From Escherichia phage Mizar, in the sequence record PV714129.1: DNA of 64,000 nt. One strand, 5' to 3'. Within the stretch, counting starts at the first letter, position 1, and each line of letters begins with the position of its first letter. Positions 35,298-35,737 of this stretch are shown in pieces. A model generated the notes under the pieces. That model was not told the origin of the DNA, ran no database searches, and saw only the letters and a list, made by a program, of their open reading frames with translations. The position numbers and the translations under genes are program-made.

Positions 35298-35708
35298 CTA
35301 CTTTTTCTTATGTTGGATATTCCAAGGCGGGTTGAACTTTTTGATAAAAAGCGGTTCTTCAAGGTCCATTGTTGCGATGGTCATTGAACCAAGTTCGTTG
35401 GTGACTGAAAGGTCAAAACATTGGCGGGCCCAGAATTCAACCTTTTTTCCTTGCATTAAGGCATCCAAAATCATAAGTGATTTTCTTGAATCTGAAGTCT
35501 GGTCTTTTCGATTTATGGCTGTTCGATAGTAGTTAATGCGTTTCTTTAAATTCTTGGTTTTACCAATATACACAAGTTCGTCATCTACAGCAATAGCGTA
35601 TATGACATTTTTCTTATTAGAGACATCAACTGTTTTAATTGTTGCATCTTCTAATAGCTCCAATTCTGTATATTTAATAAAGGAATATTCGGCGGCAATA
35701 TCTTTCAT
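35298..35708 (-). CDS. denA: Endonuclease II (GIY-YIG family)
   Basis: 136 aa, same as T4 DenA; GIY-YIG-like core VYIGKTKNLKKRINYYR; between rnlA and nrdB. Confidence 0.85.
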   Translation of the reverse strand: MKDIAAEYSFIKYTELELLEDATIKTVDVSNKKNVIYAIAVDDELVYIGKTKNLKKRINYYRTAINRKDQTSDSRKSLMILDALMQGKKVEFWARQCFDLSVTNELGSMTIATMDLEEPLFIKKFNPPWNIQHKKK

Positions 35709-35737
35709 AATAAAGTGGGACCGAAGTCCCGTCCTTA
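35706..35737 (-). promoter_or_regulatory. Split ribosome-binding site for denA: SD, hairpin, AUG
   Basis: Minus-strand RNA UAAGGAC-GGGAC-UUCG-GUCCC-ACUUUAUU-AUG; SD AAGGA overlaps nrdB stop, 23 nt from AUG, 9 nt if hairpin folds. Confidence 0.5.

Follow-up and report, generated by a model that had tools for sequence, protein, structure and literature searches.

Translation initiation regions in which a hairpin lies between the Shine–Dalgarno (SD) sequence and the start codon have been described for a few genes of bacteriophage T4, and two reviews (PMC3014915, PMC7297116) name exactly two of them, genes 38 and 25, at both of which destabilization of the hairpin lowers translation. At T4 gene 38, the SD stands 22 nucleotides (nt) from the AUG and the hairpin reduces this distance to 5 nt (Gold 1988, as reported in PMC7297116 and PMC3014915); at gene 25, a distance of 27 nt is cut to about 9–11 nt, as documented by lacZ fusions and dimethyl sulfate (DMS) probing (Nivinskas et al. 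1999; Malys & Nivinskas 2009, both as summarized in PMC3014915). T4-type phages are also known for intercistronic C(UUCG)G hairpins (Tuerk et al. 1988, as cited in PMC4371310). Here we consider the junction between nrdB and denA in a 64,000-nt stretch of DNA from Escherichia phage Mizar (PV714129.1; "the window" below means this whole stretch), where the first-pass annotation had proposed a hairpin-bridged ribosome-binding site for denA of the kind known from these few T4 genes. The available text of both reviews makes no mention of denA, which, if the proposal is true, would become the third case of an architecture that so far rests on two T4 genes. From the layout of the junction and its conservation, we consider it probable that denA has such a split (hairpin-bridged) translation initiation region.

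The denA junction beside the split sites of genes 38 and 25

On the minus strand, the junction reads UUC-UAA-GGAC-GGGAC-UUCG-GUCCC-ACUUUAUU-AUG, followed by AAA (Table 1). The proposal held that no SD lies within the normal range of the denA AUG, that an AAGGA overlapping the nrdB stop codon sits 23 nt upstream, and that a perfect hairpin between the two brings them to about 9 nt, and each of these statements is borne out. The best SD match in the last 20 nt before the AUG is the 3-mer GGU, which lies inside the 3′ arm of the hairpin; the coordinates of AAGGA were confirmed on the minus strand; the hairpin, GGGAC-UUCG-GUCCC, is a perfect stem of 5 base pairs (bp) at 35730–35717; and excision of its 14 nt leaves an SD–AUG spacing of 9 nt, made up of C35731 and the tail ACUUUAUU. 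There is thus no SD at about 4–13 nt from the start codon, the SD that does exist is more than 15 nt away with the hairpin wholly between, the excised spacing is a functional one, and (as described in the next section) structure, SD and spacing are conserved together.

The 14-mer folds at −7.5 kcal/mol into a structure that makes up 97% of its own ensemble, and each stem pair keeps a probability of 0.96 in a 121-nt context. By itself, this stability is modestly unusual (z = −2.4; 9 of 200 shuffles fold as well), and the full layout, defined by a distant SD in the absence of a near one, a hairpin of −7 kcal/mol or lower between SD and AUG and an excised spacing of 4–13 nt, recurs at 23 of the 2384 ATG triplets in the window (approximately 1%). 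The improbability of the single sequence is therefore mild, and significance has to come from comparison with other phages. An Rfam search of 35300–36100, with E values up to 10 admitted, returned two chance-level matches alone, so that the stretch contains no known RNA family.

We also scanned the window blind, taking approximately 90 heuristically called gene starts and asking for no SD (4-nt match) at 3–13 nt, an SD at 14–35 nt and an intervening fold of −4 kcal/mol or lower. Three loci only were returned: gene 25 (12465), the gene at the position of gene 38 (54759) and denA, with gene identities confirmed by PHROGs and Pfam. The gene at 54759 encodes a Caudo_TAP-type tail-fibre assembly protein, and its junction with gene 37 (54726–54761, plus strand) reads UAAGGAG-AA-GGGGC-UUCG-GUCCC-UUUUUAUAAU-AUG. 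It parallels the denA junction in having its SD on the upstream stop codon, a 5-bp CUUCGG hairpin one base different from that of denA, and a U-rich tail free of SD. The differences are that it serves a late tail-fibre gene pair rather than the nucleotide-metabolism pair nrdB/denA, that its linear spacing is 26 nt (23 nt at denA), that its SD is stronger (GGAG), and that the effect of structure on gene 38 is accepted from experiments, whereas the denA layout is known here from sequence. The junction of genes 26 and 25 (12463–12496, minus strand) reads GAGG-CC-UCAAAGA-AUUC-UCUUUGA-G-UUACUAUA-AUG, with the SD–AUG distance of 27 nt published for T4. It shares with denA the order SD, hairpin, AUG, but its hairpin, which is AU-rich and without a tetraloop motif, is contained in the coding sequence of gene 26; the stop codon of that gene shares bases with the AUG (UAAUG) and not, as at denA, with the SD; and the gene 25 site has been reported in close T-even phages only, whereas the denA layout occurs in at least five genera.

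Conservation of the junction and of the denA start

Junctions were gathered from 49 viral contigs, 26 metagenome contigs and several GenBank records, yielding 26 distinct hairpin-type sequences, which we aligned; by record taxonomy, these come from at least five genera of Tevenvirinae (Tequatrovirus, Mosigvirus, Kanagawavirus, Karamvirus and Gaprivervirus). The comparison with T4 that had been suggested reveals the same layout there, UAAGGAG-U-GGGCC-GCAA-GGCCC-A-UUUUAUU-AUG, with a compensatory change of a C-G to an A-U stem pair between T4 and this phage and a GNRA loop in T4 against a UNCG loop here. Over the whole alignment, 94.2% of the cells of a six-pair helix hold standard pairs, and three of the six pairs show compensatory changes (GC/AU; GC/CG/AU; AU/GC/UA/CG). 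Covariation amounts to 0.429, compared with 0.162 in shuffles; none of 500 shuffles matched the observed covariation or pairing, and both collapse when the 3′ partner is slid by 1–3 columns. RNAalifold returns the same six-pair helix and nothing else, leaving SD and AUG clear of any conserved helix, and the occasional G-U pairs fit an RNA structure of the sense strand. Twenty-one of the 26 junctions carry a UUCG loop, the loops of the others being GCAA, GUAA, UUUG, UUAG and one of 5 nt.

What surrounds the hairpin is conserved with it. An SD match of 4–7 nt abuts its 5′ side in every one of the 26 junctions and persists through shifts of register relative to the stop codon (UAAGGA, UAAAGGA, UAAAAGG, UAGGAG, UAAGAGAGG), while the tail between hairpin and AUG measures 6–10 nt and never contains an SD. 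Linear SD–AUG spacing is 21–28 nt; with the hairpin excised it becomes 6–10 nt, apart from a single outlier of 14 nt that results from an imperfect stem. Expressed as aligned spacing, most junctions fall at 3–7 nt, and this phage at approximately 6 nt. The optimum of aligned spacing in E. coli is reportedly about 5 nt (Chen et al. 1994), a value that the range in these junctions would bracket. The distance from stop to AUG stays at 26–28 nt despite differing stems, with two hairpin junctions departing from it (23 and 32 nt). Two contigs (L029, L031) keep SD, hairpin and an 8-nt tail even without U-richness of that tail (UAUAAAGCU), a point against termination as the role for which the element is conserved.

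Three other candidates for conserved features were rejected. A helix outside the hairpin, pairing UAAGG of the SD with CUUUA of the tail, is present in the minimum free energy (MFE) fold of this phage and is lacking from the RNAalifold structure of the 26 junctions. The RegB cleavage site (GGAG) is present in T4, and the window has AAGGAC in its place. The AAGG that can be read in T4 from the GCAA loop and the following GG, as a possible conserved SD, is missing in the window and in most phages, and is buried in the stem.

Lineages that lack the bridged arrangement are equally informative. In three of them (L027, L087 and Aeromonas phage avDM3), there is neither hairpin nor SD, and the denA ATG overlaps the upstream TGA as ATGA; in avDM3, the gene upstream of denA is an unannotated open reading frame (ORF), not nrdB. 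In RB49-like contigs (L050, L051, L085, L086), the hairpin is followed by a tail of approximately 29 nt with an ordinary SD, GAGGAAAGGA, placed 3 nt before the ATG. The hairpin, GGGCGGGA-GAAA-UCCCGCC plus a U tract, is longer there and lies approximately 60 nt before denA; a UAAGG still stands on its 5′ side, possibly as a relic. Given these two arrangements, a long SD–AUG distance is never seen without an intervening hairpin. If the bridged reading of denA is true, its conservation in at least five genera, together with the natural controls provided by the ATGA-overlap and the hairpin-plus-own-SD lineages, would make the split site a recurrent design and not an oddity.

Another account would place the true start of denA further upstream, within the hairpin region, and make the long SD–AUG gap an artefact of annotation. 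The RefSeq T4 record (NC_000866.4; L057) does carry such a start, with denA given as 137517..137951 (435 nt) and opening on a GTG within GGAGUGGGCC; this GTG (137949–137951 of the record, L057 2450–2452) belongs to the hairpin's 5′ arm and lies 3 nt past the nrdB stop. In the window, however, no start codon stands between the nearest in-frame stop and the ATG; intergenic length varies among phages (26, 27, 28 and 32 nt), so the upstream frame is not conserved; conservation of the protein begins at MK(D/E)IA in an alignment of 13 sequences; and the crystallized T4 EndoII (2WSH) construct begins at the equivalent Met. A GTG at zero spacing from GGA and buried in a stable stem is in any case an implausible start. 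We therefore rule out the upstream GTG and regard an artefact of this kind as extremely improbable; very probably, the absence of a linear SD led to a wrong start call in RefSeq T4.

Gene-calling software that looks for a linear SD misplaces the initiation site in other records as well. In Ge15 (L003 1757–1759), an automated ribosome_binding_site for denA is placed on the AGG of the loop and 3′ arm (GCAAGG), and in Edwardsiella phage PEi26 (L059 574–984), denA, either interrupted or simply mis-called, is annotated with a length of 207 nt (778–984), while the conserved junction and ATG are found at 574. A split site at denA would hence be useful for annotation, and no surprise to specialists.

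What the hairpin may do between nrdB and denA

Between the start of nrdB and denA, we found no promoter-like site and no TATAAATA late promoter; MotA-box-like or sigma-70-like sites occur only upstream of nrdB (36976/36981), inside denA (35592) and downstream of denA (35297). On this evidence, denA would lack a promoter of its own and be read off nrdB transcripts. Its only SD, (U)AAGGA, would at 23 nt from the AUG be too far away for a linear site, but the intervening 14 nt should form a very stable C(UUCG)G hairpin almost at once. If this hairpin is extruded from the mRNA track of the 30S subunit, the C and ACUUUAUU (9 nt, approximately 6 nt aligned) would join the SD–anti-SD helix to the AUG in the P site, and we infer that folding would be both required for denA translation and enhance it. 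A terminating ribosome with UAA in its A site covers roughly the next nine bases. From that footprint, a ribosome finishing nrdB would be expected to cover the SD and melt the whole 5′ arm, so that denA initiation would have to wait for its departure and for the hairpin to refold. The same geometry would serve a 30S subunit remaining on the message past termination, and de novo initiation and re-initiation would not be distinct at this level. At its place 4 nt beyond the stop, with a U-rich stretch behind it, the same hairpin is probably also a weak terminator or 3′-end protector, which would lower denA relative to nrdB. If the bridge is real, the arrangement suggests how a DNA-degrading nuclease could be kept at a level set by, and subordinate to, the expression of nrdB, and the junction would offer a compact 32-nt system for the question of how the 30S subunit accommodates a hairpin between SD and P site.

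Several observations weigh against this bridged reading. The covariation proves a hairpin, not its purpose, and the 26 junctions are phylogenetically related, so that an SD beside the hairpin in 26 of 26 does not represent 26 independent events. In the 121-nt ensemble of this phage, pairing with the CUUUA of the tail leaves the SD bases AAGG just 13–24% unpaired; on this folding model, such pairing could also restrain denA initiation and damp expression. In our view, the UAAGG/CUUUA helix is weak and local rather than a conserved structure that sequesters the SD, and pairing with the anti-SD would displace it. The literature searched contains no experiment or statement on denA translation, although the older T4 literature may hold one. 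The ATGA-overlap lineages demonstrate that pure coupling can suffice for denA expression. Finally, terminators and message stabilizers usually stand where this element stands, 4 nt past a stop codon, and it combines a GC stem and an extra-stable tetraloop with a U-rich tail: a terminator scan flags the denA hairpin as the only terminator-like site in 35000–37200, a terminator is annotated at the corresponding position in ATK48 (by ARNold) and in Ge15, and the T4 version is more terminator-like still (−11.6 kcal/mol, T-score 3.9).

The last of these points raises the alternative that the hairpin is just a leaky intrinsic terminator or a barrier to 3′ exonucleases for the nrdB mRNA, with AAGGA and the short tail incidental, and that read-through transcripts, translated inefficiently through SD-independent or coupled initiation, supply the little DenA needed. 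The hairpin does fit a wider class. The window contains 13 UUCG hairpins whose stems have 5 or more bp, 4 or more of them GC, compared with 0.06 in dinucleotide shuffles (and 29 occurrences of CTTCGG against 16 expected), and most of the other 12 lie 3–6 nt past stop codons, with stems of 7–11 bp and energies of −10 to −16 kcal/mol. Like these hairpins and like weak terminators, the denA element has a GC stem (5 bp, 4 of them G-C), a UUCG loop closed by a C-G pair on a Watson–Crick stem, a position a few nt past a stop and a U-rich stretch after it. A weak terminator with a short U tract has, moreover, been documented experimentally in the T4 nrd region, inside mobE (PMC2790892), and TransTerm predicts a terminator upstream of denA in RB49; the supplementary terminator list of Nolan et al. 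2006 includes this RB49 terminator and has no RB69 entry for nrdB–denA.

Within its class, however, the denA hairpin is at the short and weak end. It and the gene 38 hairpin (−6.9 kcal/mol) are the two smallest in the window, its tail, a poor U tract, begins with AC and contains 5 U in 8 nt, and its T-score (of the d'Aubenton-Carafa type) is 1.22, which ties for second lowest of the 13 and compares with 2.3–5.0 for most other hairpins. It also differs from the class in having no SD after it although a gene starts 8 nt on. Apart from those at denA and at 54759, tetraloop hairpins up to 40 nt before a gene are followed by an SD of that gene's own (10829, 50761, 21919), the exception, at 59178, being one whose heuristic start is uncertain; the absence of an SD from the denA tail is therefore not a constraint of space. 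Termination leaves unexplained why an SD stands 5′ of the hairpin in all junctions through changes of register, and why the tail is SD-free, 6–10 nt long and of a length that puts the excised spacing in the functional range; L029 and L031 retain the layout with a tail that is not U-rich; and termination cannot be efficient if denA, lacking a promoter, needs read-through. As a full account of the junction, we consider a terminator or exonuclease barrier rather unlikely. As a second role, 3′ stabilization or termination (the former had also been raised in the proposal) is plausible and does not exclude a bridge: a modest attenuating or 3′-protecting effect on nrdB mRNA is likely, looks weak in this phage, and leaves the conserved SD and spacing unexplained.

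Alternatively, denA might be translated by termination–reinitiation alone, with nrdB ribosomes restarting at an AUG 26 nt further on and neither SD nor hairpin serving as a bridge; the hairpin may then merely slow or retain the ribosome. An SD on the stop codon and a gap as short as 26 nt are typical of coupled cistrons, and the direct ATGA overlaps, with no SD, represent three independent lineages. ATGA-type coupling resembles the arrangement in this phage in that denA is expressed from the message of an upstream cistron without an independent linear SD site, but here stop and start are 26 nt apart, with a structured element between them and a conserved SD. A retained subunit would still have to bring its anti-SD to AAGGA while an AUG 23 nt away occupies its P site. 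Because it would need the same folded geometry, coupling becomes a variant of the bridged mechanism and not a separate one. A covarying stem and a constant tail length would be unexplained were the hairpin irrelevant, and the gene 38 site, with the same layout, works in published tests (PMC3014915). Coupling alone thus appears improbable to us.

A more ambitious possibility combines these elements. The SD on the stop codon, the 5-bp CUUCGG hairpin, the short U-rich tail and the AUG, a set present in almost the same form at nrdB/denA and between genes 37 and 38, would together be no passive spacer but a dedicated, portable coupling device that also terminates some transcripts. A terminating ribosome would melt the hairpin, which would snap shut behind the released or retained 30S subunit; refolding would then hand the SD-tethered 30S to the downstream AUG, much as in the hop over a tetraloop hairpin in T4 gene 60, and a single 30-nt cassette would determine how the two cistrons compare in mRNA level as well as in translation. 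We hold this to be unlikely. The bridged reading itself we regard as supported, because the comparative evidence is strong and because genes 25 and 38 provide internal positive controls in the window.

Genomic context and other tetraloop hairpins

The positions of the features discussed above are given in Table 1. For this part of the window, identity is approximately 99% to Mosigvirus (RB69-like) phages, among them LH01 and ATK48, and approximately 74% to T4, and the gene order on the minus strand is nrdA, nrdB, denA, rnlA. The denA product matches PHROG 1111 (E 4e-63), Pfam GIY-YIG and the T4 EndoII structure 2WSH (E 3e-66).

Table 1. Features of the nrdB–denA region (window positions) and of the ATGA-overlap loci (positions in the named contigs)
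Feature	Position	Strand	Basis
nrdB (ribonucleotide reductase small subunit), 392 amino acids, uninterrupted, upstream cistron	35735..36913	−	ORF, PHROG 86, Pfam PF00268
nrdB stop codon UAA, shares bases with the SD	35735..35737	−	sequence
SD element AAGGA (UAAGGA counting the stop-codon U), 23 nt 5′ of the denA AUG	35732..35736	−	sequence
Hairpin GGGAC-UUCG-GUCCC, 5-bp stem, C(UUCG)G tetraloop	35717..35730	−	folding, covariation, RNAalifold
Hairpin 5′ arm	35730-35726	−	
Hairpin loop UUCG	35725-35722	−	
Hairpin 3′ arm	35721-35717	−	
U-rich SD-free tail ACUUUAUU, 8 nt, hairpin to AUG	35709..35716	−	sequence, homologue tails
denA start codon AUG	35706..35708	−	first start after in-frame stop
denA (endonuclease II, GIY-YIG family), 136 amino acids	35298..35708	−	ORF, PHROG 1111, Pfam GIY-YIG, 2WSH
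ATGA-overlap locus, L027	1441-1503		
ATGA-overlap locus, L087	about 380-400		
ATGA-overlap locus, L060	about 1070-1080		

Unlike in T4, nrdB has no intron here and there is no mobE between nrdA and nrdB (35735–36981, minus strand); the short spacer between these two genes holds a promoter-like TTGTAA-17-TATAAT and a MotA-box-like AGCTTTA.

Two further observations concern the tetraloop hairpins elsewhere in the window. The hairpin at 10829–10846 (plus strand), TAAGGGC-TTCG-GCCCTTA, takes the TAA stop of a 504-amino-acid ORF as the first three bases of its 5′ arm, and the SD of the next gene, GGAG, follows directly after the 3′ arm (10829–10857), a compact hairpin-then-SD alternative to the denA layout. 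The 18-nt hairpin GGGAGAC-TTCG-GTCTCCC occurs in four identical copies at differing intergenic sites (3783–3802 and 50761–50778 on the plus strand, 42437–42454 and 27167–27186 on the minus strand), which points either to convergence on a favoured form or to the copying of a terminator cassette; the identical hairpin sits at the nrdB–denA junction itself in contig L045.

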